A stretch of 64,000 nucleotides of DNA from an uncultured Actinomycetes bacterium (GCA_963703275.1 OY969804.1:3692392-3756391), one strand, 5' to 3'. Shown: positions 6,997-39,553, counted from the first letter of the stretch. The notes: a model not told the origin generated them from the sequence alone. Program-made: numbers and translations.

Positions 6997-7015
6997 ATCC
7001 TGCCTAGGGCAGGAT
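6997..7015. terminator. short hairpin ATCCTGCC-TAG-GGCAGGAT between convergent genes
   Basis: 8-bp perfect stem read directly. It overlaps the rph stop codon. No U-tract. Confidence 0.25.
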
Positions 7016-9532
7016 CTCGACGTACCCGTCCGTTCCATGCACCCGGATCCGCCGCCCGTCCTGGATCAGCTGGGTGGCGCGCTCGACCCCCACGACGGCC
7101 GGCAGGCCGTACTCCCGGGCGATCACCGCGCCATGGGTCATCAGGCCCCCCACCTCCGTCACCAGGCCGGTGATCGCGACGAACAGCGGCGTCCAGCTGG
7201 GGTCGGTGTAGGCGGTGACCAGGATGTCACCCGGTTCGAGATCGGCCTTCGCCATGTCCAGGATCACGCGGGCTCGCCCCTCGACCGTCCCGGCGGAGAC
7301 CGGCAGGCCGACGAGCGCGCCGGCCGGCACGCCTTCGCGCCGGTAGGCCCCCGCCATGATCTCGCCATCCGATGTGAGCACCCGGGGCGGCGTGAGCGCC
7401 TGATACGACCGGAACGCCTCCTTGCGCCCGCGGATGAGCTCGGCATCCACCTGGCCGGTGCGCACGACGTCCCGGAGTTCCTGGAAGCTGAGGTAGAAGA
7501 TGTCCTCGGGCTCACGAAGCACGTGGGCCTGCACCATCCGCTCGGCCTCTCCCAGGAGTGCCTGCTTGTACACGAAGTAGCGGCTGACCATGCCGTACTT
7601 CGGATACTCCCGGTATCCGATGAAGGTCCGGACGCGGTCGATCATCCGCTTCACCTCTTCGGCCTTGGCCTCCCCGTCCGGCAGGGCCCGCAGGGCCTCG
7701 ACCAACTCCTGTTCCTTCTTCCAGGCCTCCTGCCGGCCCTGCTCGAAGCGGCGCTCGCCCGCGCCGGGCTCGAAGTTCTTGATGTTGCCGAGGATCAGGG
7801 GCACGAGCGTGGTGGGACGTTCGCTCCACCGCGGCCGCGTGATGTCGATCTCACCGACGCAGCGCATGCCGTACCTGTCGAGGTAGGCCAGGATTGCGTC
7901 CCGCCCCTCCCGCCCACCCGCGAGCTTGGGCAACTCGTCCAGGAAGTCGTCGTCCTCGACCTGCTGCAGGAAGGCCACGACGTCCGGATGCGGGCGGATC
8001 ACGTCCGCGACATCCAGGAGCGCCAGTCCCATCTCCGACGTGACGTTGTGCGGGACGGACTGGGTGAGCGTATCTGCCGCGTTTGTCTCGCCCAGCCACG
8101 TCTGCAGGTGCTCGTTCAGCCACCACGTGGCCTCCATCGCCGACATGAACACCCGGTGGCTTTGCGGATCGAACAGGATCCGCTTCAGCTCATGGATGTC
8201 CTCCAGGATGAAGTCGAGCAGCGCCGGGCCCGACTTCGACCGGATGCCGCATTTCAGAGCTGCGATGGATTCCTGGTTGCGCGTGATCAGGTCGGTGACG
8301 ATGGCTGGATCGGTCTCGATCGGGGCCTGGGCGGCGCGCGCGGGCGGTGGCCCGGCGGGCTCCTCGTCCGGGAGTGATGGAAGGAAGCCGCTGCGATCGA
8401 CGATCGACCGCAGCGCGTCCCCGGACAGCGGGTCAGCCCTCCCAAACGCCTCCACCAGCCGGGCGCGGCTCGCCGGCGATGCGAGGTCGTGCGTGACGTC
8501 GACGAACAGCCTCCCGCCGGCGTGGTGCATCGGCCGGCCGGCGGTGAGCTGCCACATCGAGATCCCAAGCGGCTTCATGGGGTCGGTCATCATCTGCTGG
8601 TGGCCGACCGAGAGGTACACGTGGTTCTCGGCGTCGCCGGCCGCGGGGATCGGGAACAGCGTGGTGATGGGCCGGCTCTGGACAATCTGGAATCCGTCGT
8701 CGGCCAGGCACCATTCGATGTCCTGAGGGCGGCCGAAATGCGCTTCGATCCGCCGGCCGAGCTGCGCGAGTTGCACCACCTGCGCATCCGTCAGCGCCGG
8801 CTGCGCGGCGGCGATCGTCCGCTCGGCGACCTCGCCGTCGCGGACCGTGTAGATGTCCGGGTTCACCAGGCCCGAGACCAGGTCCTCGCTGAGGCCGAAG
8901 CCGGCCTCGATGGAGGCGACCTTCCGGTTGGAGGTGATGGGGTCGGCCGTGAACAGGATGCCGGCGGCCTGTGGGAAGACCATCTGCTGCACGACCACGG
9001 CCATCTGCACCCTGCGGTGGTCGATGCCGTTCCGCAGGCGGTAGGTCACGGCCCGCTCGGTGAAGAGCGAGCCCCAGCACCGGCTCACGGCCTGGAGGAT
9101 CGCCGCCCGCCCCACGACGTTCAGGTACGTGTCCTGCTGTCCCGCGAAGGAGGCCGTCGGCAGGTCCTCCGCCGTCGCGCTCGATCGGACGGCGTAGGGG
9201 GCGTGCTCGCCGAGCCCGGCGAGCGCGCGGGTGATCGCCGCCGCCACATCGTCGGGGATGGCGATTCCCTCGATGGCGCGGCGGATCTCCGCGCTGAGCG
9301 CGCCGATCGCCTCCCGGTCGTTGGGCCGCAGGAGCGACAGGCGGTCGAGCCGATCGCCGATCGACGGCGCGCCCGCCATGATCCGCCCGAAGGCGTCGGT
9401 CGTCACGCAGAAGCCGGCGGGCACGCGGACGCCTTCGATCCTCGACAGCTCGCCAAGGTTGGCAGCCTTGCCGCCGACGACGGCGACCTGCGTCCGGTCG
9501 ATCTCCTCGAAACCCAACACGTAGCGGCTCAT
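7004..9532 (-). CDS. rph: rifampin phosphotransferase-type PEP-utilising enzyme (annotated elsewhere as phosphoenolpyruvate synthase-like)
   Basis: 842 aa from the internal ATG (MSRYVLGFEEI). N-terminal ATP-grasp (VGGKAANLGEL). The protein ends with the swivel His domain GGLMTHGAVIAREYGLPAVVG and has no C-terminal TIM barrel. An RAE-like repeat lies upstream. Confidence 0.8.
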   Translation of the reverse strand: MSRYVLGFEEIDRTQVAVVGGKAANLGELSRIEGVRVPAGFCVTTDAFGRIMAGAPSIGDRLDRLSLLRPNDREAIGALSAEIRRAIEGIAIPDDVAAAITRALAGLGEHAPYAVRSSATAEDLPTASFAGQQDTYLNVVGRAAILQAVSRCWGSLFTERAVTYRLRNGIDHRRVQMAVVVQQMVFPQAAGILFTADPITSNRKVASIEAGFGLSEDLVSGLVNPDIYTVRDGEVAERTIAAAQPALTDAQVVQLAQLGRRIEAHFGRPQDIEWCLADDGFQIVQSRPITTLFPIPAAGDAENHVYLSVGHQQMMTDPMKPLGISMWQLTAGRPMHHAGGRLFVDVTHDLASPASRARLVEAFGRADPLSGDALRSIVDRSGFLPSLPDEEPAGPPPARAAQAPIETDPAIVTDLITRNQESIAALKCGIRSKSGPALLDFILEDIHELKRILFDPQSHRVFMSAMEATWWLNEHLQTWLGETNAADTLTQSVPHNVTSEMGLALLDVADVIRPHPDVVAFLQQVEDDDFLDELPKLAGGREGRDAILAYLDRYGMRCVGEIDITRPRWSERPTTLVPLILGNIKNFEPGAGERRFEQGRQEAWKKEQELVEALRALPDGEAKAEEVKRMIDRVRTFIGYREYPKYGMVSRYFVYKQALLGEAERMVQAHVLREPEDIFYLSFQELRDVVRTGQVDAELIRGRKEAFRSYQALTPPRVLTSDGEIMAGAYRREGVPAGALVGLPVSAGTVEGRARVILDMAKADLEPGDILVTAYTDPSWTPLFVAITGLVTEVGGLMTHGAVIAREYGLPAVVGVERATQLIQDGRRIRVHGTDGYVEILP

Positions 9533-9558
9533 GCGCTCGTGATTATGCGGCACGACAG

Positions 9559-9577
9559 GGTGCTTGCCGCAAGCCCC
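9559..9577 (-). promoter_or_regulatory. RAE-like 19-bp inverted repeat (coding-strand GGGGCTTGCGGCAAGCACC)
   Basis: 8 of 9 arm positions pair around a central base. The repeat lies 27..45 nt upstream of the rph ATG. Confidence 0.6.
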
Positions 9578-9709
9578 GGGTGGGCACACGTTGTTCGGGC
9601 GGTCGTCGGCGTCCCGAGCCTCTTCCAAGCGGCCTCGGTCATTCGCGGCTGTCTGGTGTGAGGCCGAGGTCCGAGGTCGTGGGTGACCCGACCACGCGCC
9701 CCCGGAGCG

Positions 9710-10253
9710 GGAGAAGCGGAGGAGCTCGACGATGGTTGAGCTGGTCTGGCTGTCGAGGTTGCCGGCGGGCTCGTCGGCGAGGATGATCGACGGGTTGTTG
9801 GCGAGGGCTCGGGCATGCGAGAAGCCTGTTCTCCTCGAGCTCAATCTCCTTCGCGGTTGTCGCGCAGCTCGCCTGTTCAGCATGCCGCCCGGCCCTGCGG
9901 TCGCTCGTAGATGCCGATGAACTCCATCGGGAGCATGACGTTCTCGGTGGACGTGAGGTTCGGGACGAGGTTATAGCTCTGGAAGACGAAGCCGACCTGC
10001 CGCGCGCGGTAGTGGACGAGTTCGCTCGGGCTGAGTCGCGTTATGTCCTGGCCGTCCACGAGAGATCATGCCGCTGGTCGGTTGCTCGAGCGCGCCGAGC
10101 AGGCTCATGAGCGTGGTCTTGCCGCTACCGCTGCGGCCGATGATCGCGATGAACTCGCCGTCGGCGACGGTCATCGTCACGCCCGTAGGTCACGGCCGAC
10201 GACGGCCCGATTCCAGAGAGGAACGATTGCGTCAGGTCCTTGGTCTCGAGCAC
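9710..10253 (-). pseudogene. MacB/LolD-type ABC ATPase, frameshifted and 3'-truncated
   Basis: Pieces lie in three frames. First: GTG-VLETKDLTQSF. Second: Walker [10 protein letters not shown]. Third: VDGQDITRL...FVFQSYNL. Last: ARALANNPSIILADEP, with the signature motif degraded to LSSRR. Homology stops at ...IVELLRF. Confidence 0.75.
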
Positions 10254-10255
10254 GG

Positions 10256-11622
10256 TCAGTCGCTCCGGAGGACTTCGGCGGGCCGGATCCTGCCGATCAT
10301 CCAGGTCGATGCCGCGCTGGCGAGGACCGCGATGACGAGCGCGGCGGCGAGGCCGCTCGAGGACCACCGCCGATCCGACCTGTGCGTTGATGTCATTCAG
10401 ATGGCTGAGGAACGGGTTCGGCGCGCCGAACAGGCCGCGGGCACCGGTCGCTGACGACACCCCACTGTGCGAAACGAGCGCCGAGGTGACCGGGCTTGCG
10501 GCGATGAGGCCGGCCAGGAGGCCCACGCCCAAGCGGAGCAGCGTGAAGGTCGCCGCTTCGACGTGGATTGCGCCATGATCCGGCCGTTCGAGGCCCCGAT
10601 CGCCTTCAGGATCCCGATCTCGCGTTTGCGCTCCCGCACGATCAGCACCATGACCAGGAGGAGGATCACGGCAGCGGCCCCGACGGCTCCGGCGAGGCTG
10701 TAGAGCGCGATCCTCTTGACGCCGTCGAGGTCGCCCACTGCCTATCGGCGTCGGCGACGTGCTCACCACGCTCGCCCGGGCCGAGTGTCGCTCGATCGCC
10801 GAGGTCACCGCGGAGAGCGGTGAGCGAGGCGGCGGTGATGGTGGCCGAGAAGACCTGGCCGGTGGGAGCCTCGAGACGCTCGAGCACCGGCAACGAGGTG
10901 ATGACCGAGTCATTGCCCTGCTGCGTGTCGCTCTCGAAGATCGCCGCGACGGTGAGCGTCTTGCCGTAGGCGGTGAACATCGAACCGACCTTCAGCCCGT
11001 TCTTGCGCGCCATGGTCGTGCTGACCATGGCGACGTTGGCCGAGGCGGTGCCCGAGATCGCGTGGCCGCTCACGACCTTGAGCGCCGAGGCGCCGATGTT
11101 CACCGGGTTCGTCGGCTTCGTAGATCCGGTGAAGTACACGGTCAGGTAGCTGATCGGCGGCGTGCAGGGCTTCGGCGCACAGGCGAGACCCGCCCCGGCG
11201 GCAGCCAGGCTTTCGGGGGACTTGAGGCTCGTCGAAGCGAGCGGCTTGTCGTGCTTGCATCCGCCGGCGCGGGCACATTTGCCGGCGCCACTGAGCCAGG
11301 CGCGACGCCCGACTGCGACGAGTCAGGGCCTTCGCGACGACGTCAGGCTCTTAAGCCCGTGACCCCCGGCAGGTGCGCGATCCGGGCCATTCCGGCGATC
11401 GTGAGGACTGCCGAGCCGCCCACCGGCGGCGTAGCCGGGCGGGCCGATGTTGACGGTATTGCCGACCGAGCTGAGCGTCGTCGCGACCTTGTCGCTGACC
11501 GAGCGATGCGCGACCAGCATCACGAAGGCAAGGCCGATCGCCAGCCCCAGGATCAGCACGATCGCGATCGCGCGGGTCGCGTTGCGAAACGCGTTTCGCA
11601 TCCCCCGCGGGACGACCGTCAC
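10256..11622 (-). pseudogene. FtsX/MacB-type ABC permease, multiply frameshifted
   Basis: N-terminal TM (AIAIVLILGLAIGLAFVML), periplasmic-domain piece (GKTLTVAAIFESD), KREIGILKAIGASN and C-terminus ...IRPAEVLRSD. All lie in different frames. Confidence 0.7.
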
Positions 11623-21639: not shown

Positions 21640-24159
21640 TTACGCCGCGCGGCGCTCGCTTGCGATGAGTGCGTTGAACGCGGAGGCTGGGATTGGGCGG
21701 CTGTAGAGGTAGCCCTGGCCAAGCGGGCAGCCACGGTCGAGAAGGAACCGCAGCTGGGCCTCGGTCTCGATACCTTCGGCGAGGCATGTGATCCCGAGTT
21801 TCTGCGCCATGGTGACCATCGTCTCTACGAGGATGCCGGCGTCGTGGTCGGTGGCGAGGTCCCTCACGAATGACCGGTCGATCTTGATCATGCTGGGACG
21901 CAGGCGCCGCAATCGCTCGAGGGATGAGTAGCCGGTGCCGAAGTCGTCGATCGCAAGCCGCAGGCCCCCAGTGTGGATTTCCGCGAGCATGGGCTTGAGT
22001 TCTGTGCCGGTGTTCATCGCGGCTTCTTCCGTGACTTCGATCATGATCCGCTCGGCGCCGAGGCCGAACGATTCGATCATGGCGATCATGCGCCGGATGG
22101 CGGTCGGCTGCCAGTAGGCGGGCGGGATGTTGATCGACGCGTAGATGTCGAGGTCCTGGTCGCACCAGCGCTGCACCTGGACGCACGCCTGCTCCAGCAC
22201 CCACGCCGTGATGGGGCGGATGAGGCCGGTGCGTTCGGCGGCCGGCAGGAAGTCGCCCGGAAGCAGCAGCCCCCTCTCGGGGTGGTTCCAGCGAATCAGG
22301 GCCTCGGCGCCGACGATGGATGACGTGCTCAGGTCGACGATCGGCTGGTAGTACAGCTCGAGCTCGTCGCGCCGCTCGGCCTGCCGGAGTTGGGATGCGA
22401 TCGCAAGTTCGCCGCTCAGATCGCGCTTCGGCGGCTGGTAGAGGCGGTATCCGTCACGGCCGCCGTCCTTGGCGGTGTACATGGCGATGTCGGCGTGCTT
22501 GAGCAGGGTTTCGGCGCTGTCGCCGTCGGCCGGAAAGAGGCTCGCGCCGATGCTCGGAGTGACGTAGACGTTGGTGTTGGCGATCGCAAACGGCGCCTGG
22601 AGGGAGTCGACCAGTTGTGCGGCGACCCGTCCCGCGGTCGTTGTCGCGCCGGTGGAACCCTCACCCGCATCGAGGTCGGAGAGCAGAATCAGAAACTCAT
22701 CCCCGCCCTGGCGCGCAACCACGTCGCTCGGTCTCACCGCCGCGCTCAGCCGCACCGCGACCGATTGCAGGAGCTCGTCGCCGGCGCCGTGACCAAAACC
22801 GTCATTGACGAGCTTGAAGTCGTCGAGGTCGAGGAACAGGACGGCGACGCCGCGGCCGCTTCGCGTCGCGTGCGCGACGGCCACCTCCAGATGCTCGCGA
22901 AACATGGCCCGGTTGGGAAGGCCGGTGAGAGGGTCATGGTAGGCCAGGTGTGCGAGCCGCTCCTCGGCGTGTTTGCGGGGCGTGATGTCGAGCAGGTACC
23001 CCTGCCGGTAGAGCGGCACGCCCTCCGCGCTCGGGACGACCACCGACTCGTCGCGCACCCAGCGCTCGCTGCCGTCGGGTCGCACAATCCGGTACTCACA
23101 GCAGAAGTCGCTGTTGCGCTCATGCGCCGCGCCGAGTGCGGCCATCACCCGGTCGCGATCGTCGGGATGGACGGCCTTTTCGAACAGGTCAGGATCGGCC
23201 ACCCATTGCTCATGGGTGTAGCCCGTGATGTCGGCATTCTGGGGACTGTTGTAGATCGACGTGGCCTTCGCATCGAGGGCATCCACGTAGATGGCCAGCG
23301 GCAGCCGCTCGACCAGGTTGCGGTATCGCTCCTCGGCTTCGCGGAGGTGGACCTGTGAATCCCGAAGCGCCTGCTCGGCAAGTTTGTGCTTGGTGATCTC
23401 GAAGATCATTCCGTGTACGGCCGTCGGCTCGCCGTTCTCGTTGCGGAACGTCTCGGCCAGATCCGACACCCACCGCACCTCGCCTGCGGCGTCGATCAGG
23501 CGGTACTCCGCCTCGAACGACCCGCCGGCGGCGACGGCGGCTGCGTAGGCGGCCAATGTCGCTTCGCGATCGTCCGGGTGCACCTGCCGAGCCCAGCCCC
23601 CCGTGCCGTCCAGCCAGTCGCACACCGGCACGCCAAACAGTCGCTCGAGCTGGGGACTGATGTAGATGGGCGTGCCGGTCACCGGCTCGGACACATACGC
23701 GACGGCGGGGAACTGCTCGATCAGCGACGTGAGGACCGCCGCCGACCGTCGCACCGCGGCGTCGTCGAGGGCGTCTGCGAGCACCGGCGCCAGGACATCG
23801 CAGACGCGCGCCCAGTCATCGGCGCTGAGCGCATCGTGGGGCGGCGCCGCTTCGGCGGCCATCGTCAGCGCCCCCACGGGGCGGTCGAACGCGTGCAGCC
23901 CCATCGTGACGGTGCCGCCGGCGGTCATCGAGCCGCCGGCCGAGAGCAGCCGGGTAACCGCGTCGTCCGGGACCCACTCCCGGCCGCCGTCGGTCTTCAG
24001 AGCGCCGCGCTCCGGATCCCACAGCCACACCACGCCGCCACGGCGGCCGAACTCGGGAATGCGGTCGCGAAACTCCGCGATCACCCGATCGGGACTGCGC
24101 GATTCCTGGAGGGCAAGCGACAACCCGAGGAGCCACCGGTCCCGATCGAAAGTAGTCAT
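21640..24159 (-). CDS. PAS-PAS-GGDEF-EAL c-di-GMP signalling protein
   Basis: GGDEF motif RQGGDEFLILL and EAL motif GAEALIRW are both intact. PAS repeats lie N-terminal. Confidence 0.9.
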   Translation of the reverse strand: MTTFDRDRWLLGLSLALQESRSPDRVIAEFRDRIPEFGRRGGVVWLWDPERGALKTDGGREWVPDDAVTRLLSAGGSMTAGGTVTMGLHAFDRPVGALTMAAEAAPPHDALSADDWARVCDVLAPVLADALDDAAVRRSAAVLTSLIEQFPAVAYVSEPVTGTPIYISPQLERLFGVPVCDWLDGTGGWARQVHPDDREATLAAYAAAVAAGGSFEAEYRLIDAAGEVRWVSDLAETFRNENGEPTAVHGMIFEITKHKLAEQALRDSQVHLREAEERYRNLVERLPLAIYVDALDAKATSIYNSPQNADITGYTHEQWVADPDLFEKAVHPDDRDRVMAALGAAHERNSDFCCEYRIVRPDGSERWVRDESVVVPSAEGVPLYRQGYLLDITPRKHAEERLAHLAYHDPLTGLPNRAMFREHLEVAVAHATRSGRGVAVLFLDLDDFKLVNDGFGHGAGDELLQSVAVRLSAAVRPSDVVARQGGDEFLILLSDLDAGEGSTGATTTAGRVAAQLVDSLQAPFAIANTNVYVTPSIGASLFPADGDSAETLLKHADIAMYTAKDGGRDGYRLYQPPKRDLSGELAIASQLRQAERRDELELYYQPIVDLSTSSIVGAEALIRWNHPERGLLLPGDFLPAAERTGLIRPITAWVLEQACVQVQRWCDQDLDIYASINIPPAYWQPTAIRRMIAMIESFGLGAERIMIEVTEEAAMNTGTELKPMLAEIHTGGLRLAIDDFGTGYSSLERLRRLRPSMIKIDRSFVRDLATDHDAGILVETMVTMAQKLGITCLAEGIETEAQLRFLLDRGCPLGQGYLYSRPIPASAFNALIASERRAA

Positions 24160-24408: not shown

Positions 24409-24936
24409 TTGGTGATCGGATTCGCGCTGGCAATCGCGGTGATCCAGTTGGTCGTGATCGCCTGGGCACGCCAGGTGATCCGTCTCGCAGCGGATGAGCT
24501 CATCGATACGGGCACCACGGCCGGCGCCGACACTGAAGCGGCCGCCCAACTCGACGCCCGCATGCAGGAGCTGCGCGGCGAGCGGGAACGCCGGCGGACG
24601 GCCCGCACCCTCCGCGACGCGATCATCGACGCTCGCCGACCTCGATCCAGCAACCCGCTTGTGCTTGCCGGCCGGACGACAACGCTCACAAAGGGCGCCG
24701 CGCAGGCGCTTATCGTGGACCACGCGCTTGCGACACGCATCGCGACAGCCCTCCCCGAGTCAGACGCCGACCCGCGGGCGATCCTCGCCGTGCGCAAGGT
24801 GCTCTTTCCCCAACCTGGCGCCACCGTCTCTGTGGACGAACAGGAACGGGCTGCGCGTCAGGAACTCATCCGTGCAGCTCGCCTACTCGGCATCGACTCT
24901 CAGACTGCCGATGCCAAGCGAGCCGGCGGTGCCTGA
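24409..24936 (+). CDS. hypothetical protein (N-terminal TM; may start upstream)
   Basis: The frame stays open and hydrophobic from ~24334. Its 3' end overlaps the dyp 3' end. Moderate GC3. Confidence 0.45.
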   Translation: MVIGFALAIAVIQLVVIAWARQVIRLAADELIDTGTTAGADTEAAAQLDARMQELRGERERRRTARTLRDAIIDARRPRSSNPLVLAGRTTTLTKGAAQALIVDHALATRIATALPESDADPRAILAVRKVLFPQPGATVSVDEQERAARQELIRAARLLGIDSQTADAKRAGGA

Positions 24937-25926
24937 GGCATCGGTCTCGTCGATGGTGGGCGTCGCGGCCGCATCGGAGGTCGACGGCGTCGGCGGGTCG
25001 TCGAGGAACTGGGCGGAGGGTGCGAAGAACAGGTTGCCGGTGACCGCCGTTGAGAAGTCGAGGATCCGGTCGTAGTTGCCGGGCGGGTTGCCGACGAACA
25101 TGTTGCTCAGCATCTGCTCGATGACGTCCGGCCGCCGCGCGTAGCCGATGAAGTACGTGCCGAACTCGCCCACGCCGACCCGCCCGAACGGCATGTTGAA
25201 CCGTGCGATCTGGCGCTCGGTGCCGTCGCTGTCGACGATGGTGTTCAGTGCGACGTGCGAGTTGGAGGGTTTGACGTCGTCCGCCAGCTCGAGATCGCTC
25301 AGCTTCGTGCGGCCGATCATGCGTTCCTGCTCCTCCACGGCCAGCGCGTCCCAGCCGGCCAGGTCGTGAAGGTATTTCTGCACGACCACGTACGTGCCGC
25401 CCGCGAACTCGGGGTCTTCGGCGCCGATCACAACCGCGGACTCGGCCTCGGCTCCCTCGGGATTCTCGGTGCCGTCGACGAACCCCAGCAGGTCGCGCTC
25501 GTCGAACGACCTGAATCCGTGCACCTCGTCCACCACCGCCGCGCACCCGTTCGTTCGCGCCGTCAGCCGCTGCGCCAGCTCGAAGCACAGGTCGGCGCGG
25601 TGCGCGCGGATGTGGAACAGCAGATCACCGGGCGTCGCCACCGCCGTATGCCGGGCGCCCGCCACCGCGACGAACGGGTGCAGCCCCGCCGGGCGCGGGT
25701 CCCCGAACAGCCGGTCCCACAACCCCGATCCGATCCCGACGACGCAGCCGAGCCCGCCCTCGGGGATGCGAAACCCCACGGATCGCCGCAATCCGCCGAC
25801 GTCGGCCAGCAGGGCCCGGATCTCGTCCTCGCCGCCCGGGTGCACCGTCAGCACGAGAAAGATCGCCGCCTCGGTTGGGGGCGTCAGGACGGCCTGAGGT
25901 TCACCGGCACCCATGACGGACCGCAT
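24883..25926 (-). CDS. DyP-type peroxidase with C-terminal encapsulin-type targeting peptide
   Basis: DyP core contains GFVDGTENP. A Pro/Thr/Ser linker follows, then the terminal ...GSLGIGSLRVDAE. Confidence 0.9.
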   Translation of the reverse strand: MRSVMGAGEPQAVLTPPTEAAIFLVLTVHPGGEDEIRALLADVGGLRRSVGFRIPEGGLGCVVGIGSGLWDRLFGDPRPAGLHPFVAVAGARHTAVATPGDLLFHIRAHRADLCFELAQRLTARTNGCAAVVDEVHGFRSFDERDLLGFVDGTENPEGAEAESAVVIGAEDPEFAGGTYVVVQKYLHDLAGWDALAVEEQERMIGRTKLSDLELADDVKPSNSHVALNTIVDSDGTERQIARFNMPFGRVGVGEFGTYFIGYARRPDVIEQMLSNMFVGNPPGNYDRILDFSTAVTGNLFFAPSAQFLDDPPTPSTSDAAATPTIDETDASGTAGSLGIGSLRVDAE

Positions 25927-25974: not shown

Positions 25975-28038
25975 CTACGGCGCGGCCAGCTGAATGACCT
26001 CGCGCCGGAACGGCGGCAGCGAGTCGTCGCCGGGCGGAGCGTCGAGCTCCTCGGCGTAGCGGCGACCGTCCCAGACCGCGGCGGCGATCGTGCCCGGGCT
26101 CCACGCGTCGCCGACCAGGCGCACCACCGGCCCGTCGCCGGAGGCCTCGGCGAGCGCCCGCAGGCTCTCGCCGAGCTCGTCCTGCGGGAGCCGGCCGGTC
26201 ACGAGCACCACCGCATCGGCCGGGTGCTCGCGCTCGGCATCGGTGAAGACGCACGCGCTGACCGCGCGGCCGCCGTCCGCCCCAACGAGCGCTCGCGAGA
26301 CCAGCACCTCGACGCCGAGCTCCAGCAGGCCACCCTGGATCCGCGTCTGCTCCATCGTGTTGACCGTCCACGCCGAGGCCAGCGGCTCGGGTGTGACGAG
26401 GGTGACGTGCCGCCCCTCCCGTGCGAGCAGGCCGGCGAGCACACCGCCCATGTAGTAGTGGTCGTCGTCGTAGACGACCACGCGCTCGCCGGCGGGCCGG
26501 ACGCCCGCGAGCATGTCGTCGGGCGTCAGCACCTGCAAGCCGTCGCCGACCGCGATCGGCCGGGTGTGCCAGCGGCCGACGCCGTCGCCGCGCCACCGCG
26601 AGCCCGTCGCGACGGCGATGTGGTCAAAGCCGTAGGAGTACGCCTCCTCGGCGGTGAGCGGGCTGCCGAGCCCGATCTCGACATTCGGCAGCCGAGCCAG
26701 CTGGCTGCGGCGGTAGTCGACCACGCGGATCCAGGCGGCGAGGCCCGGCAGGCGTGCCTCGACCGCCACCCGACCGCCCAGGTCGTCACCGGCCTCGGCC
26801 AGCACCACGTCGTAGCCGCGCCGGCCGAGCATCATCGCCGCTTCGAGGCCGGCGGGCCCGCCGCCGACCACGAGGACACGCGCATCGGAGGTCTTCGCCC
26901 GGATCCGCTCCGGGTGCCAGCCCCGCCGCCACTCCTCGCCCATGCTCGGGTTCTGCGTGCACCGGATCGGCGTCACCGTCGAGTCCCCCGTGACGCAGAT
27001 GTTGCACCCGATGCATTCGCGGATGTCCTCCCACCGCCCTTCCTCGATCTTCTTCGGCAGGAAGGGATCGGCGATCGACGGCCGCGCCGCCCCGATGAGG
27101 TCGAGCACTCCGTCGCGCACCATGCGCACCATGGTGTCCGCCGAGGTGAACCGGCCGACGCCGACCACGGGCTTCGAGGTGAGCGCCTTGAGTCCGCGGA
27201 CGTACTCCTCCTGCGACCCCTCGGCGGCGAATCGCGACGTGATCGAGTCGAAGTCCCACTCGCCGACCATGAAGTCCCACACATCGGGCAGCTCGCCGAC
27301 GATGCCGAGCACCGCCTCGATCTCGCCCCGGTCGATCCCGCGCTCGCCGACCTGTTCGTCGACGCATATCCGGCACGCCACCGCCGCGCGCCCATCGACG
27401 AGCTCGACAGTGTCTTCGAGGATCTCGCGCAGGAGCCGCGCCCGGTTCTCGATGCTGCCGCCGTACTCGTCGGTGCGATCGTTGAACCGGCGCGAGAGGA
27501 AGTGCTGCAGCGTCGTCAGGCCGTGGGCGGCGTACACGTAGACGAGGTCGTACCCGGCCCGCAGCGAGCGCTCGACCGCGGCCCGGTGCCAGCGCCGCAG
27601 GTCGGCAATGTCGCTCTTGCTCATCCGCCGCGCCTGCACCGGGTCGGTGGTCTGCACCGGCAGGTGCGCAGGTCCCATCGGCGGTTGGCGGACGTAGAGG
27701 TTGGCGGCGGTCATCCCGCTGTGAACGAGCTCGATCCCGGCCAGCGACCCATGCTCGTGCACCTTCTCGACCAGCCGCGCGTGCATCGGGATGTCGGCGT
27801 CGTCCCAGAGCCGGCCTTCGACGAACCCGGCGACGTCGGTGGAGTGGTGGAGCTCGACCTCCTCGGTGCACACGACCGCCCAGCCGCCCTCGGCCTTCAC
27901 GCCGCGCATCTCGGCGTGGGCGCTCGGATGCTGGTGGCCCATGCCGTTGCAGTGCGGTACCTGGAAGAACCGGTTGCGGGCCGTGACCGGCCCCATCGGC
28001 ACCGGCTCGAACAGCACGTCGTAGCGGGGGTCGCGCAT
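25975..28038 (-). CDS. trimethylamine/dimethylamine dehydrogenase-like flavoprotein (OYE-like FMN + 4Fe-4S + FAD/NAD domains)
   Basis: 688 aa from the internal ATG (MRDPRYDVLFEPV). Cys cluster CIGCNICV...C. Dinucleotide fold VLVVGGGPAGLEAA. Confidence 0.88.
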   Translation of the reverse strand: MRDPRYDVLFEPVPMGPVTARNRFFQVPHCNGMGHQHPSAHAEMRGVKAEGGWAVVCTEEVELHHSTDVAGFVEGRLWDDADIPMHARLVEKVHEHGSLAGIELVHSGMTAANLYVRQPPMGPAHLPVQTTDPVQARRMSKSDIADLRRWHRAAVERSLRAGYDLVYVYAAHGLTTLQHFLSRRFNDRTDEYGGSIENRARLLREILEDTVELVDGRAAVACRICVDEQVGERGIDRGEIEAVLGIVGELPDVWDFMVGEWDFDSITSRFAAEGSQEEYVRGLKALTSKPVVGVGRFTSADTMVRMVRDGVLDLIGAARPSIADPFLPKKIEEGRWEDIRECIGCNICVTGDSTVTPIRCTQNPSMGEEWRRGWHPERIRAKTSDARVLVVGGGPAGLEAAMMLGRRGYDVVLAEAGDDLGGRVAVEARLPGLAAWIRVVDYRRSQLARLPNVEIGLGSPLTAEEAYSYGFDHIAVATGSRWRGDGVGRWHTRPIAVGDGLQVLTPDDMLAGVRPAGERVVVYDDDHYYMGGVLAGLLAREGRHVTLVTPEPLASAWTVNTMEQTRIQGGLLELGVEVLVSRALVGADGGRAVSACVFTDAEREHPADAVVLVTGRLPQDELGESLRALAEASGDGPVVRLVGDAWSPGTIAAAVWDGRRYAEELDAPPGDDSLPPFRREVIQLAAP

Positions 28039-28043
28039 CGGCG

Positions 28044-29216
28044 TCAGGCGGCGTCCGGCCGCAGCGAGCCCGCCGGCCGCTCCTTGCGCGGATCGACGAA
28101 CGGGATCGCGGCGGTGTGACCGGACACGGGTCCGTGCTCCGACTCGACATCGATGCGGTTGCCGGGGCCGGCCAGCCCGATCGGCACCTGGACGTACCCG
28201 ATGTTTCGACCGAGCCCGGGCGACCAGACGGCGTTCGTCACGCGGGCCACCGGCTGCCCATCGTGGCTCGCCGGCCAGCTGGTCGTGATGCCGGGGAAGG
28301 GCTCCTCGCGGTCGAACTCGATCCCGACGAGCTTTCGGTCGACGCCCTCGCCGCGGACGCGTTCGAGAGCCGCCTTGCCGATGTAGTCCTGCGGCTGCTC
28401 CTCGACGAGCCGCTCGAGCCCCATCACGTGGAACGGCGTATCGGCGAGCGTCATGTCGGAGCCCCAGTTGAAGATCCCCGCCTCGACCCGGCGGGCCTCG
28501 TTCGGGGCGATCGGGCGGATCGCAAACTCCTCGCCGGCGGCCATGATGGCATCCCAGAGCTCGCCTCCGCGGGTGCCGTCGAGCAGGTTCACCTCGAAGC
28601 CCGGCACCGCCGACCAGCCCGTGCGGCTGATGACGACCGGGATGTCGCCGATCTCGAACCGCTCGCACCAGTAGTAGCGGATGTCGTAGATGGCCTCGCC
28701 GACGAGCTTGGCCAGCGTCGCCGCGGCGTGCGGGCCCTGCACCTGCACGGGATGCACGTCCGGATAGGTGACCTCGGCGTCCAGGCCCGAGCTCGAGAGC
28801 ACCCCGAGCGCATAGAGGCCGGCGTCGCTATCGGCCAACTGCATCCACCACACGTTCTCGTCCACGTGGAGCAGGACGGGGTCGTTGACGATGCCCCCGC
28901 TCGGCGAGATGACGAGCATGTACTTGCCCTGCTTGACGGCGCAGCGGGTGAGGTCGCGGCAGGTCAGCATGTCGATCAGCCGGTCGGCGTCGGGGCCTGC
29001 GATCTGCACGGTCCGCTCGACGCCGACGTCCCACAGCGTGACGGCCTCGTTGAGCGCCCGGTACTCGTTCGCGACGTCGTCGTACTCGGCCGGCAGATAC
29101 ATCTTGTTGTAGATGTCGTACGCCTTGCAGCCGGCGCGGAGCGTCGATTCGAAGTACGGCGAGCGCCGGTACCAGGGGCCGAAATACAGCTTCGTCGTTG
29201 CGGGCAGGCCGGTCAC
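28044..29216 (-). CDS. GcvT-family aminomethyltransferase-like protein
   Basis: 390 aa. GcvT-like pattern (VTLWDVGVERTVQIAGPDA...RVEAGI). 5 nt upstream of the TMADH-like gene. Confidence 0.85.
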   Translation of the reverse strand: MTGLPATTKLYFGPWYRRSPYFESTLRAGCKAYDIYNKMYLPAEYDDVANEYRALNEAVTLWDVGVERTVQIAGPDADRLIDMLTCRDLTRCAVKQGKYMLVISPSGGIVNDPVLLHVDENVWWMQLADSDAGLYALGVLSSSGLDAEVTYPDVHPVQVQGPHAAATLAKLVGEAIYDIRYYWCERFEIGDIPVVISRTGWSAVPGFEVNLLDGTRGGELWDAIMAAGEEFAIRPIAPNEARRVEAGIFNWGSDMTLADTPFHVMGLERLVEEQPQDYIGKAALERVRGEGVDRKLVGIEFDREEPFPGITTSWPASHDGQPVARVTNAVWSPGLGRNIGYVQVPIGLAGPGNRIDVESEHGPVSGHTAAIPFVDPRKERPAGSLRPDAA

Positions 29217-33630: not shown

Positions 33631-34772
33631 AGCGCGACGCCCGGATCGCCGGTCCAGAGCGAATGGCGTCCCCGCCCGTGCTCGGCGCGCGCGCGTTGCA
33701 CCTGGTCGGCGGCGTGCATCGCGAAGCGCCGCGCCCGCTCGAGCCAGAGCTCGTCGCCCGTGCGGCGCAGCAGCGCCAGAAAGGCGAGGCCGTTCCCGGC
33801 GGTGCCGTGGCAGAGCGTCGGCCCCTTGCGCAGCGGGCCCGCCTCCCAGGCCAGCTCGCCGCCGGCCACCAGCAGTCGTGTGAAGGCCTCGTTGTCGGGC
33901 GCGACTCCGGCCAGCGTCGCCACCATGCCGGGCGCGCCGTGGCACCACTGCGTGCGGATCTCAGCCGGCCCGCGCACGGGCAGGCCGCCACCCGCGATGG
34001 GCTCCCAGTTGGCCCGCCCGCCCTCCACGAACGCGGTGGCGGTGGCCGCCCGCACCGCGTCGTGCTCGAGCTCGCGGGCGCGTCCGGCTCCCAGCAGGTC
34101 GGGCCGCTGCGCGAGGGCGGCGATGCACCCCGCCATGCCGTGGGCGGGGCCCACGTACCGCGCGACGTGCCCGTAGAGGTGCTGGGTCCAGATCCGGTAG
34201 CCGAGTGCGTCGTCGTGCACCCACGCGTCCCACACCGCGTCAGCCAGCCGGCGCCAGACCACCCCGAAGCGTTCCTCGCCGGTGCGGTGAAGGAGTGCGG
34301 CCGCCACCAGCATCGAGCCCGGTGCGCCCCACATCACCTCGACCGCGGGGTTCTCGGCGTTCTCGTCGAGCAGGGCGTGCAGCAGGTCGCGGCGGGCGGG
34401 GTCGGGCGCCAATCGCTCGGCGACCGCGAGGATGCCAGCCCGGCCAAGCCAGAGCCCCGGCGCCGGCGGGCCGGAATCGGGACGCGCCAGGTAGCGCTCG
34501 TCCAGCCCGTCCGCGATCGCCGCGAAGTCGCGCTGCGAGCCGAGCTCGGCCAGCGCCCAGATGACCCCGGCGGCGCCCATGTAGAGCCCGGTGTACGACC
34601 GCTCCGCATCCTCGTCGTCGTCCCAGTCGAGCGGGTGCAGCGTCCACAGTCGGGCGCGGTCGAAGGCCTGCTCCGCATCGGCGACGATCGCGGCGATCGC
34701 GGCCCGGGCGCGACCCTCGTCCCACGCCCGGTCGACCAGCGGCTCGTGTTGCTCAGGCGAAAACAGGGCCAC
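33570..34772 (-). CDS. LanC-like (lanthionine synthetase C-like) protein, stand-alone
   Basis: Motifs GPAHGMAG, WCHGAPG and LCHGTAGN lie in the expected order. No precursor, dehydratase or kinase gene is adjacent. Confidence 0.85.
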   Translation of the reverse strand: MALFSPEQHEPLVDRAWDEGRARAAIAAIVADAEQAFDRARLWTLHPLDWDDDEDAERSYTGLYMGAAGVIWALAELGSQRDFAAIADGLDERYLARPDSGPPAPGLWLGRAGILAVAERLAPDPARRDLLHALLDENAENPAVEVMWGAPGSMLVAAALLHRTGEERFGVVWRRLADAVWDAWVHDDALGYRIWTQHLYGHVARYVGPAHGMAGCIAALAQRPDLLGAGRARELEHDAVRAATATAFVEGGRANWEPIAGGGLPVRGPAEIRTQWCHGAPGMVATLAGVAPDNEAFTRLLVAGGELAWEAGPLRKGPTLCHGTAGNGLAFLALLRRTGDELWLERARRFAMHAADQVQRARAEHGRGRHSLWTGDPGVALYLRSCIDPASATGIDLGCW

Positions 34773-35661
34773 GGCGCCACTCTATCGAGGTGGCGAATCC
34801 GAGGAACTCCGTTGCCACCTGCCGCGACGGGCCGACCGAGGAGCGCATGATGTACCAGTCGCGCGGCGGCGGTGCCGAGGCGACCGTGATCGTGCCGACC
34901 AGTCCGGCGTCGAGCTCGGTGGCCACCGCCGCGCGCGAGACGAACGACACGCCGAGGCCGGCGCGGGCGGCCTGCTTGATCGCGCCGTTTGAGCCCAGGG
35001 TCATCGTCTGGACGTCGATCCCGACGCTCGCGATGAACTCCTCGTTGACGGCGCGCGTACCCGACCCCGGCTCGCGCAAGAGCCAGCGCCGGCCGGCGAG
35101 CCTCGCCGCCGAGACCGTCTTGCCTCCGGCGAGCGGGTCGTCGGGCGCGGTGATCAGCATGAGCTCGTTCGCAAGGATCGGGTGCGCCTCGATGCGCTCC
35201 TGCGGCGGCGGGCGGCCGCCGATGGCCAGGTCGGCCTCGTGGTTCTGGATCACGGCCAGGACGTGGTCGCGGTTGCCGACGTCGAGGGCCAGGCCGATCT
35301 GCGGATGCGCGGTTGCGAACGCCCGCATGAGCGGGGGCACGAACGATTCGGCGGCCGTCGTGACCGCGGCGATCGTCAGCGTGAGCGCGCCGCGCGCCTC
35401 GGCGTCACGGGCGGCATGCCGGCCCTGCTCGAGCAGGCCGATGACGTCGGCCGCGTACGCGGCGAACTCGCGTCCGGCCGGGGTCGGCCGCACTCCGCGG
35501 CCCGCCCGCTCGAGCAGGCTCACGCCCACCTCGCGCGAGAGCGCGGCGACGGCGGCTGAGATCGCCGGCTGGGTCACGACCAGCTCGTCGGCGGCGGCCG
35601 TCACCGAGCCGCCGTTCACGACCGCGAGGAAGCTGCGCAGCTGGGTCAGCGTGATCGACAC
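34753..35661 (-). CDS. cbbR: LysR-family regulator, CbbR-type by position
   Basis: HTH LTQLRSFLAVVNGGSVTAAADELVVTQPAIS. Divergent from cbbL. Confidence 0.88.
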   Translation of the reverse strand: MSITLTQLRSFLAVVNGGSVTAAADELVVTQPAISAAVAALSREVGVSLLERAGRGVRPTPAGREFAAYAADVIGLLEQGRHAARDAEARGALTLTIAAVTTAAESFVPPLMRAFATAHPQIGLALDVGNRDHVLAVIQNHEADLAIGGRPPPQERIEAHPILANELMLITAPDDPLAGGKTVSAARLAGRRWLLREPGSGTRAVNEEFIASVGIDVQTMTLGSNGAIKQAARAGLGVSFVSRAAVATELDAGLVGTITVASAPPPRDWYIMRSSVGPSRQVATEFLGFATSIEWRRGPVFA

Positions 35662-35674
35662 CGTGGCTCAAAGC

Positions 35675-35690
35675 ATAACCGATCACTTAT
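35675..35690. promoter_or_regulatory. ATAA-N8-TTAT dyad in the cbbR-cbbL intergenic region (candidate LysR/CbbR box)
   Basis: ATAACCGATCACTTAT read directly, 14 nt from the cbbR start. Confidence 0.3.
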
Positions 35691-35737
35691 CTCTCATCGT
35701 CAAAGTTTCATTGGACGGCTCTGACTACCGCTCGTAG

Positions 35738-37231
<1,494 letters not shown>

Positions 37232-37252
37232 CCATCCATCGAGGAGATCAGG

Positions 37253-37717
37253 ATGCGAATCACGCAGGGAACGTTCTCCCACCTTCCCGACCTGACCGAC
37301 GACGAGATCGAGGCGCAGCTGCGCTACGCCCTGCGCAACGGCTGGGCGATCATGGTCGAGCACACCGATGACCCGCATCCGCGCAACTCGCTGTGGGAGA
37401 TGTGGGGCCAACCGCTGTTCGAGCTGGCCGAGGACGAGGTCGTGATCGCCCTGCGCGAGGTGCGGGCCGCCCGCGAGGCCTGCCCGCACGAGTACGTCAA
37501 GGTCGTCGCCTACGACCGCTCGCTGGGCCGCCAGACCACCGCCCTCGCCTTCATCGTGGGCCGGCCCGCGTTCGAGCCCGGCTTCCGGCTCGAGCGGCAG
37601 GAGAAGGCCGACCGCCAGATCCGTTACACGCTGCATCCGTACGCGGCCGACGTTCCGGCCGGCATGCGCTACCGCGCGACCGGCACCGCGACCGGCAACG
37701 GAGCGCCCGCCCGGTGA
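37253..37717 (+). CDS. cbbS: RuBisCO small subunit
   Basis: [19 protein letters not shown]...YVKVVAYD, with a C-terminal extension. Confidence 0.95.
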
Positions 37718-38595
37718 ACGCCCGGCTCCAGCCGGTGACCCCGCCCGACACCGACATCGAGGGGGTGCTGGCCCAGCTCGATCTGGATCTGGTCGCCCTC
37801 GAGCCGGTGAAGACGCGCATCCGCGAGATCGCGGCGCTGCTCGTGATCGACCGCATGCGCCGCGAGCAGGGCCTGATCTCGTCGCGCCCGTCGCTGCACA
37901 TGAGCTTCACCGGCAACCCCGGCACGGGCAAGACGACGGTCGCGCTGCGGATGGCCGAGATCCTGCACCGGCTCGGCTACATCGAGAAGCCGAAGGTGGT
38001 GTCGGTCACGCGCGACGACCTGGTCGGCCAGTACGTGGGCCACACCGCCCCCAAGACCCGCGAGGTGCTCAAGCGCGCCCGCGGCGGAGTGCTCTTCATC
38101 GACGAGGCCTACTACCTGTACCGGCCCGAGAACGAGCGGGACTACGGCCAGGAGGCCATCGAAATCCTGCTGCAGGTCATGGAGACCGAACGAGACGATC
38201 TCGTCGTCGTGCTGGCGGGCTACCGCGACCGCATGGAGACCTTCTTCCGCTCCAACCCCGGCATGGGCTCGCGCGTTGCCCACCACATCCACTTTCCCGA
38301 CTTCGACGTCGACGAGTTGATGGCGATCGCCGCGCTGATGCTGGGCCGGCAGGCATACGAGCTCACGCCCGCCGCGCAGACCGCGCTGCGCGGGTACGTC
38401 GAGCGGCGGGTGCGCCGGCCGCGGTTCGCACACGGCCGCAGCATCCGAAACGCGATCGACCGGGCGCGGATGCGCCAGGCCAGCCGCCTGTACGACCGCC
38501 GCGATGCGCTCGACCGGACCGACCTCGTCACGATCGAGGCTGAGGATATTCTCGCGAGCTCCGTGTTCGCCGACCCGTCCGCCGACCCCAGCTGA
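37714..38595 (+). CDS. cbbX: CbbX AAA+ RuBisCO activase
   Basis: GTGA overlap with cbbS. Walker [12 protein letters not shown], Walker [11 protein letters not shown]. Confidence 0.92.
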
Positions 38596-38608
38596 GCAGG
38601 AGCACAGG

Positions 38609-39553
38609 ATGCCTCGTCCGATCATTCTCGGAGTCGTCGGTGACTCCGCAGCCGGAAAGACCACCATCACGCGCGGCCTCGTGCGCGCGCTCGGCGAGGA
38701 CGCCGTCACCCACGTCTGCACCGACGACTACCACCGCTACGACCGCGCCCAGCGAGCCGAGCTCGGCATCACGCCGCTTGACCCCGACTGCAACTACATC
38801 GACATCATGGAGCAGCACCTCACGCTCCTGCGCCGCGGCGAGGCGATCTTGAAGCCGGTGTACAGCCACGCCGACGGGACGTTCGGGCCGCCTCGGTACG
38901 TGCGGCCGCAGCGCTTCACGGTGGTGGAGGGGCTCCTGGGGTATCACACCGCGGCGATGCGCGACGTCTGCGATGTCCGTGTCTACCTCGCTCCGCCCGA
39001 AGACGTTCGCCGGCGCTGGAAGGTCAACCGCGACTGCTCGCGGCGCGGCTACACCACCGACCAGGTGCTGGCCGAGCTCGACCGGCGCGAGGACGACTCG
39101 GCCGCCTTCATCCGCCCCCAGGAGCGCTTCGCCGATCTCGTCATCGCCTTCACCTCTCCCGACGGCAGCGACCCCGACCACCTGGACGCCCAGCTGACCC
39201 TGCGCGACGGCCTGGCCCACCCGGATCTCGCGCCGTTCATCGACGACGACGGGGGCATCACGCTGACCGAGCAGGACGGCGAGCGGCTGGTGCGCATCCC
39301 CGGCCGGCTCGACGCCGACCGCGCCGGCGCGATCGAGCAGGCGATCTGGGAGAAGATGCACTTCGCGAGCCATCTGCGCTCGCAGCGCCTGGGTGAGTTC
39401 ACGGTGGGCAACGACCTCCACCGCTCGGAGTCGCTCGCGCTCGTCCAGCTCCTGATCCTGTACCACATGGTCACCGCCCGGGCCACGATCGCGCTCGGCG
39501 GCGAGGAGGTGCGCTGCGACGTTCCCGGCCCCGACGTGGAGGCGGTCGTCTAG
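38609..39553 (+). CDS. prk: phosphoribulokinase
   Basis: P-loop GVVGDSAAGKTT. PRK/uridine-kinase family pattern. Last gene of the cbb operon. Confidence 0.88.
   Translation: MPRPIILGVVGDSAAGKTTITRGLVRALGEDAVTHVCTDDYHRYDRAQRAELGITPLDPDCNYIDIMEQHLTLLRRGEAILKPVYSHADGTFGPPRYVRPQRFTVVEGLLGYHTAAMRDVCDVRVYLAPPEDVRRRWKVNRDCSRRGYTTDQVLAELDRREDDSAAFIRPQERFADLVIAFTSPDGSDPDHLDAQLTLRDGLAHPDLAPFIDDDGGITLTEQDGERLVRIPGRLDADRAGAIEQAIWEKMHFASHLRSQRLGEFTVGNDLHRSESLALVQLLILYHMVTARATIALGGEEVRCDVPGPDVEAVV

Follow-up and report, generated by a model that had tools for sequence, protein, structure and literature searches.

A DyP-type heme peroxidase that ends in an encapsulin targeting peptide raises the question of which shell, if any, it enters when no shell gene lies beside its own. 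The case considered here is a DyP gene found in a 64,000 nucleotide (nt) stretch of DNA from an uncultured Actinomycetes bacterium (GCA_963703275.1 OY969804.1:3692392-3756391); this whole stretch is termed the window. A sequence-only reading of the window had left two options: the DyP could be an orphan cargo that enters a shell encoded elsewhere, or what remains after a shell was lost. The analysis presented here points to the first of these. With a probability of roughly 0.8, the DyP would be cargo of the EncFtn-type Family 1 shell of the same genome and would be encoded away from that shell, i.e. as a 'secondary cargo'.

The DyP gene and its targeting peptide

The DyP open reading frame (ORF) is an intact gene (Table 1). 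Its translation closes with DETDASGTAGSLGIGSLRVDAE followed by the stop codon, and the C-terminus of the 347 amino acid (aa) chain reads GSLGIGSLRVDAE. The Pfam models of the two-domain fold match residues 11–139 (Dyp_perox_N, PF04261; E = 1e-31, 110 bits, cut-off 20.4) and residues 142–306 (Dyp_perox_C, PF20628; E = 5e-58, 196 bits, cut-off 20), and the NCBIfam model TIGR01413 matches with E = 2e-81 and 274 bits (cut-off 100.5). All scores are above the curated cut-offs, which places the protein in the DyP family. The active-site motifs are GFVDG with Asp151, SHVA, and RFNMPF with Arg242 and Asn244, plus His224; the distal Asp within GXXDG, the distal Arg and the His that ligates heme on the proximal side are all present. 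The residues Asp151, His224, Arg242 and Asn244 are invariant in 44 homologues and correspond to the active-site set of the Mycobacterium smegmatis DyP, which consists of His220, Asp147, Arg238 and Asn240 (PMC8072242).

The best solved relatives are all encapsulated DyPs: 7bok (E = 1.5e-135), 9bkx, Rhodococcus jostii DypB (3qnr) and 8u4z, the last with the entry name 'Family 1 encapsulin-associated DyP peroxidase'. The alignment to 7bok extends through the tag (...GSLGIGSLK). A single-chain AlphaFold2 model of the DyP, made from the 44 homologues, shows a predicted template modeling score (pTM) of 0.75, with several internal loops (residues 140–151 and 207–229) at a predicted local distance difference test score (pLDDT) below 50. 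Judged by these family matches and motifs, the gene product is most likely a functional cytoplasmic heme peroxidase.

A 25-residue linker rich in Pro, Thr, Ser, Ala and Asp follows the catalytic core. In the AlphaFold2 model no secondary structure is predicted beyond residue 309, and residues 317–347 have a pLDDT below 50. The tag GSLGIGSLR is placed after this flexible linker and four residues before the end of the chain, i.e. inside the last 15 or so residues where Family 1 cargo tags are expected. It is identical, Gly335 included, to the Haliangium ochraceum EncFtn tag cited in PMC10960027. A six-frame scan of the window with the pattern [SGTDE]L.[IVL]G[SGN][LIM] gave three matches, of which only that of the DyP is situated near the end of an ORF. 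A DyP with a linker and an SLGIGSL-core C-terminus, as described in the sequence-only reading, is therefore confirmed by the ORF, the Pfam and NCBIfam matches, the catalytic residues and the tag scan. Scans for promoters, terminators and inverted repeats around the 3′ end of the DyP gene gave nothing above chance.

Conservation of the tag was assessed in the 120 closest DyP homologues (73–100% identical), among which the named members are few and are all Solirubrobacteraceae metagenome-assembled genomes (MAGs). The motif is present in 119 of the 120 sequences; the one unscorable homologue, of 313 aa, breaks off within the linker. Counted by position, the occurrences are S 118/119, L 119/119, I 114/119, G 119/119, L 115/119 and R/K 114/119. 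The linker that precedes the motif varies from 12 to 35 residues across the 119 homologues and is unconserved in sequence, and the tail that follows it has 1–28 residues (median 5), again with no conserved sequence. Compared with the nearest relative (L134, DyP 91% identical), the GSLGIGSLR codons show three synonymous and zero non-synonymous changes, the linker shows amino acid replacements, and the tail after the motif shows a one-codon indel. A tag kept in 119 of 120 homologues next to a drifting linker, with only synonymous changes in its codons, has the appearance of a functional peptide, not of a relic.

The search for a shell gene near the DyP gene

The absence of an adjacent shell gene had been considered out of line with described systems, in which the shell gene was said to be directly downstream of dyp. 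This is true of core operons. It is not true of cargo encoded at separate loci, among which Giessen and Silver described eight DyPs (10.1101/085266).

The further statement that the 64 kb contain no encapsulin is upheld by tblastn with four kinds of encapsulin and by Pfam. With Thermotoga maritima and Mycobacterium tuberculosis encapsulins as queries (the M. tuberculosis Cfp29 sequence was verified with PDB 7p1t), no match in the window had an E value under 1. The genome's own shell, described below, and three Solirubrobacterales shells gave a best match of E = 0.017, which is found within an ABC-ATPase gene; the same four queries showed no encapsulin pseudogene 3′ of the DyP gene. PF04454 is absent from the Pfam annotation of the gene calls (window 14.9–57.1 kb) and of the ORFs at both ends. 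An exact protein look-up of a 959 aa ORF at 7004–9883 returned no record. Neither a search of viral contigs with an alignment of two encapsulins nor a DNA pattern scan of such contigs showed any encapsulin.

The DyP gene does not adjoin a shell gene and thus does not encode a core cargo. A stand-alone tagged DyP is found in the source genome and in all three relatives examined (P0010, P0072 and P0100). In none of these four does a shell gene occur within 10 kb of the DyP, whose neighboring genes differ from one genome to the next.

An EncFtn-encapsulin operon on the same contig

A protein identical to the DyP is recorded a single time, in contig_9387 (ena:ERZ25039470:contig_9387; 3,790,536 bp), where record positions equal window positions plus 3,676,557 and the DyP gene is situated at 3,701,440–3,702,483. 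Two Solirubrobacterales MAGs are listed with Family 1 encapsulins of the ferritin-like protein (FLP) type (Andreas & Giessen 2021, PMC8346489 Supplementary Data 1), and this listing pointed to an operon of ferritin type at another place in the genome. GTDB species genomes were scanned with a high-GC back-translation of the shell N-terminal motif AP[ILV]x4Wx17Rx3Dx2GPxG, which gave at least 120 loci; all 120 loci listed encode encapsulins. A profile built from the T. maritima and M. tuberculosis shells found mostly Mycobacterium-like sequences, and 150 diverse shells came from a search of representatives. The source shell (P0582) was reached by a protein search from the shell of a relative (L082, see below) and then through the cluster members.

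The shell gene occupies positions 10001–10801 of locus L129 (contig_9387 603,307–624,107). A Family 1 shell gene is thus found in the DyP's own genome and on the same contig, on the strand opposite to the DyP gene. The two are 3.09 Mb apart along contig_9387 or, should it form a closed circle, ~0.70 Mb. The EncFtn-like gene that overlaps the start of the shell gene encodes a protein with the C-terminal sequences DSLGLGSLRAAAS, GTDSLGLGSLRAAAS and GEPVAGTDSLGLGSLRAAAS, and its best structure matches are 33bf (E = 1e-17) and 7oe2 (E = 1e-16). The two cargo tags compare as DSLGLGSLR in EncFtn versus GSLGIGSLR in the DyP. The same EncFtn-shell operon is present on same-species contigs of other samples (L130–L133). 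A Cupin_2 gene precedes the EncFtn gene; cupins that adjoin encapsulin operons are noted by Giessen and Silver for mycobacterial DyP systems (10.1101/085266).

Table 1. Features of the DyP locus and of the distant shell operon. Positions refer to the window unless contig_9387 is named.
Feature	Position	Strand	Evidence or remark
DyP-type heme peroxidase gene, 347 aa, with C-terminal encapsulin targeting peptide	24883..25926	-	ATG-start ORF, Pfam, TIGR01413
Catalytic core, residues 1-310, two ferredoxin-like domains, Asp151/His224/Arg242/Asn244	24997..25926	-	Pfam domain limits, motifs
Flexible linker, residues 311-335 (PPTPSTSDAAATPTIDETDASGTAG)	24922..24996	-	Variable among homologues, low pLDDT
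Targeting peptide core SLGIGSLR, residues 336-343	24898..24921	-	Conservation, match to known tags
Variable tail VDAE and stop codon	24883..24897	-	Unconserved among homologues
Convergent 175 aa ORF	24409..24936	+	Overlaps last 17 DyP codons and stop codon (54 nt)
Cupin_2 gene	contig_9387 612,524-612,892		Pfam; directly upstream of EncFtn
EncFtn-like gene (PF22277), 130 aa	contig_9387 612,918-613,310		Pfam; 4 nt overlap with start of shell gene
Linocin_M18 (PF04454) Family 1 encapsulin gene, 266 aa	contig_9387 613,307-614,107		Pfam

Fit of the shell to the tag

The 266 aa shell protein aligns over its full length (residues 1–265) to the solved shells 9ry4 (E = 3e-76), 8u50 from Klebsiella pneumoniae (E = 7e-70), 7boj from M. 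smegmatis, 7odw from H. ochraceum and 3dkt from T. maritima, all of which are presumably T=1 shells. The K. pneumoniae shell is reported as T=1 (PMC10960027), and the tag of its DyP, SGSLNIGSLK, has been resolved in the shell pocket (Jones et al. 2024, PMC10960027). Essential for loading in that system are the tag residues Leu340, Ile342, Gly343, Leu345 and Lys346. On the shell side, mutation of Arg34 or Asp229 nearly abolishes loading and mutation of Ile230 or Asp38 reduces it, and Thr217 is a possible alternative partner for the tag lysine (PMC10960027).

Residues Leu337, Ile339, Gly340, Leu342 and Arg343 of the source DyP are in register with the essential K. pneumoniae tag residues. The source shell keeps four of the five tag-site residues, namely Arg34, Asp38, Asp231 (K. 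pneumoniae Asp229) and Ile232 (Ile230). The tag-binding site is thus conserved, with Leu219 in the place of Thr217.

These correspondences allow a mode of loading to be proposed. The shell would be a 60-subunit (T=1-type) particle, and the DyP tag would dock in a pocket on the inner face of a subunit during assembly. Leu337, Ile339 and Leu342 of the tag would occupy hydrophobic sub-pockets, Arg343 would pair with shell Asp38, and the peptide backbone of the tag would form hydrogen bonds with shell Arg34, Asp231 and Ile232. Because DyP and EncFtn would compete for the same 60 sites, DyP oligomers would enter the shell together with the ferroxidase cargo or else fill separate shells. The physiological role is probably one in peroxide and iron stress. 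Physical loading, its stoichiometry, the sharing of a shell by two cargos and this role are all predictions from the sequence comparisons.

Distribution among relatives

The relative that carries the DyP P0010 (79% identical to the source DyP) has an EncFtn-encapsulin operon (L082) elsewhere in its genome, at 3,250,720–3,251,912 of OY969568.1 (4,277,331 bp). The EncFtn of this operon has 130 aa and the C-terminal sequence GSESLGIGALRAASS (ESLGIGALR), and its gene overlaps the start of a 267 aa shell gene. In this relative, DyP and shell are separated by 0.71 Mb when the ENA and NCBI copies run in the same direction and by ~1.5 Mb otherwise. The split arrangement of DyP and shell is thus common to the source and to the OY969568.1 relative. 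The spacing of ~0.70 Mb (if the source contig is circular) versus 0.71 Mb (if the copies have the same orientation) hints at a conserved chromosome layout. The immediate neighbors of the DyP and shell loci differ between contig_9387 and OY969568.1.

The arrangement in the wider clade was taken from 26 listed loci labelled Solirubrobacterales, Solirubrobacteraceae, Thermoleophilia, Baekduia or Paraconexibacteraceae. An EncFtn gene is found directly upstream of the shell gene in 21 of these and a DyP gene in two (L062 on OY969580.1 and L093 on OY969572.1); the remaining three are unreadable. L062 and L093 are DyP-encapsulin core operons with the same gene order. Their DyPs are 68–70% identical to the source DyP, which makes the DyPs encoded on their own orthologous to the ordinary core-cargo type. 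With 57–63% identity, the shells of L062 and L093 belong to those furthest from the shell that accompanies EncFtn, and therefore there are two shell lineages within the Solirubrobacterales. Whatever the cargo type, the motif ...SL.IGSL[KR]... ends nearly every upstream cargo among the 120 high-GC loci listed.

Two loci from outside the Solirubrobacterales, L045 and L078, display long upstream frames of 449 and 777 aa from stop to stop, which are probably over-extended and which end in tag-like motifs (…GSLAIGRLK… and …TLGIGSLRE…). The source EncFtn matches both loci by tblastn (positions of the matches unchecked), and the cargo of both is probably EncFtn-like.

Weighing of the explanations

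An intact enzyme, a conserved tag, a shell gene on the same contig, retained binding residues and a relative with the same split arrangement together make a distal cargo the most likely explanation, in preference to a relic. The genome has an encapsulin gene, the C-terminal motif is conserved in orthologues, and an overlooked shell gene adjacent to dyp was not found. Of the two proposals made from the sequence alone, the orphan cargo with a distal shell is therefore supported by the PF04454 gene, and the lost-shell remnant is made unlikely by the presence of that shell and of the tag in 119 of 120 homologues.

Several points weigh against the DyP as distal cargo of the EncFtn-type shell. Its loading is deduced from comparison of sequences. 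The DyP gene is remote from the shell gene and apparently shares its transcript with a gene for an unrelated flavoprotein. The fifth pocket residue named for K. pneumoniae is changed, from Thr217 to Leu219 in the source shell. The inspected part of the 3.79-Mb contig_9387 is ~85 kb, and other shells or tag-bearing proteins may exist. In addition, the room in a T=1 shell is limited, with a reported content of one to at most three DyP hexamers (PMC10960027), and because of this the sharing of a shell with EncFtn decamers may be sterically restricted.

The alternative that survives best, itself unlikely, is that the tag is a relic. The gene would descend from a DyP-encapsulin operon, the shell partner would have been lost, the DyP would be free in the cytoplasm and the motif would have no function. 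Such an ancestry is plausible in view of the L062 and L093 core operons, which have the same gene order and closely similar DyPs, and 64 kb without a shell gene agree with it as well. However, a functionless motif is hard to bring together with its retention in 119 of 120 homologues beside a linker that drifts, or with tag codons in which all changes are synonymous. Furthermore, no encapsulin pseudogene is found downstream of the DyP gene, and the genome carries a compatible shell whose own cargo has the same tag.

Somewhat less probable still is a second, dedicated DyP-type encapsulin elsewhere in the genome, into which the DyP would be loaded in place of the EncFtn-associated shell. Two encapsulin core operons occur together in 14 species according to Giessen and Silver (10.1101/085266), both shell lineages occur in the Solirubrobacterales, and the ~85 kb inspected are a small part of the contig. 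Against this, no second shell came to light in those ~85 kb, DyP-type shells are normally encoded directly downstream of the DyP and nothing of the kind is there, the DyP tag matches the tag of EncFtn, and the residues for tag binding are retained in the EncFtn-type shell. A second shell, even if present, would leave loading into the first one possible.

A different role for the conserved motif, such as oligomerization, membrane association or degradation, is very improbable, since nothing specific favors it and the motif is identical to the H. ochraceum tag GSLGIGSLR, for which a shell-bound structure has been solved (PMC10960027), fits the requirements defined by mutagenesis of the K. pneumoniae DyP tag (PMC10960027), and ends nearly every gene directly upstream of an encapsulin in the 120 listed high-GC loci, irrespective of cargo.

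Genes around the DyP and shell loci

A gene for a 687 aa flavoprotein with Oxidored_FMN and Pyr_redox_2 domains is situated at 25975–28038 (- strand), with the DyP gene 48 nt downstream on the same strand. It is preceded by a gene for a GcvT-like aminomethyltransferase at 28044–29216 (- strand). The GcvT-like, flavoprotein and DyP genes look like one operon. The adjacency of flavoprotein and DyP is kept in L134, where the upstream gene is 97% identical, and is not kept in three more distant relatives.

On the other side of the DyP gene, the convergent hypothetical ORF that had been described as overlapping the peptide codons does exist (Table 1), and the source pipeline called it as a 174 aa gene on the + strand. 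The ORF bears an N-terminal hydrophobic stretch and has no Pfam or NCBIfam match. Its GC content at third codon positions (GC3) is 0.76 versus ~0.88 in neighboring genes. A counterpart is absent in the closest relative L134 and in L005; in L134 the DNA ceases to be homologous right behind the stop codon of the DyP, where another gene comes next. The status of the ORF is doubtful, as either a lineage-specific gene or a false gene call, and it is placed outside the DyP/encapsulin system. Because it is unconserved, its overlap with the DyP gene has no evident meaning. The idea that the convergent ORF constrains the tag codons was rejected, as the ORF is absent in the nearest relative while the tag is conserved there.

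Just downstream of the DyP region, at 21640–24159 (- strand), is a gene for an 839 aa PAS-PAS-GGDEF-EAL cyclic-di-GMP signalling protein. It is missing at the corresponding position in L002; an ABC-2 transporter trio further on is shared. A Calvin-cycle cluster is found at window positions 34753–39553 and consists of a divergent LysR regulator, the large and small subunits of RuBisCO, a CbbX-type AAA protein and phosphoribulokinase. This cluster suggests that the Solirubrobacterales genome has a capacity for CO2 fixation.

In the surroundings of the shell operon (L129:1262-20800, equal to contig_9387 604.6–624.1 kb), an AhpC/Redoxin gene is situated 8 kb upstream, and a molybdenum hydroxylase cluster with FAD_binding_5, Fer2_2, Ald_Xan_dh and XdhC is situated 5 kb downstream.

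Significance and comparison with known systems

The usual Solirubrobacterales operon with EncFtn, together with a stand-alone tagged DyP, predicts mixed or alternative loading of one type of shell. A wider proposal, tentative and rather less likely than otherwise, is that across a large group of soil Solirubrobacterales one EncFtn-type T=1 shell routinely serves both its adjacent EncFtn and a separately encoded and separately regulated DyP, and that the shell is re-purposed or dual-loaded according to conditions. If this were so, a single shell type would be used for iron mineralization and for peroxide removal, depending on conditions, and the gene that shares a conserved operon with the DyP could give a hint of the native setting in which encapsulated DyPs work, which has long been sought. 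The separate genomic context of the DyP may in any case be a lead on when the peroxidase is loaded. Annotation pipelines that are limited to genes adjoining the shell gene will miss cargo of this kind.

Three groups of known systems can be compared. The first consists of the DyP-encapsulin core operons of M. smegmatis (MSMEG_5829/5830, 7bok/7boj), M. tuberculosis (9bkx), R. jostii (3qnr) and K. pneumoniae (8u4z/8u50). The source DyP belongs to the same DyP subfamily (E = 1e-135 to 1e-117) and displays the same linker-plus-tag design, and the source shell has the same length, is homologous throughout and conserves the tag-binding residues. Unlike in these operons, the source shell gene is separated from dyp by 3.09 Mb of contig (~0.70 Mb should the contig be circular), and the cargo gene to which it is translationally coupled is another one.

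The second group consists of the EncFtn encapsulins of Rhodospirillum rubrum (5da5) and H. ochraceum (7oe2/7odw) and of 9ry4/9rzu. As in these, a 130 aa EncFtn is encoded directly upstream of the shell and a tag of the GSLGIGSL[RK] type is present. The source genome differs from them in that it adds a separately encoded peroxidase client with the same tag.

The third group, secondary cargo, is defined as tag-bearing proteins outside the core operon. Giessen and Silver (10.1101/085266, published 2017) found 76 such proteins by core consensus, eight of them DyPs. The same text gives Pseudonocardia dioxanivorans CB1190, which has hemerythrin as core cargo and a DyP ('Peroxi') as secondary cargo, and also names M. 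tuberculosis BfrB and FolB as secondary cargo (10.1101/085266). The source DyP resembles the secondary cargo described there in its C-terminal tag of consensus type, in a locus apart from the shell and in a shell with its own adjacent core cargo. It differs from the P. dioxanivorans case, with its hemerythrin core, in that the core cargo of the source is EncFtn. Thus DyP as secondary cargo was already described in 2016/2017, and the source DyP is ordinary biology for the field and no anomaly. Some interest is found in the pairing of an EncFtn core cargo with a DyP secondary cargo, and in how general it seems to be within a soil order that is abundant and mostly uncultured. Far from being sporadic, the arrangement looks like the rule throughout a large soil clade, most of which is uncultured.

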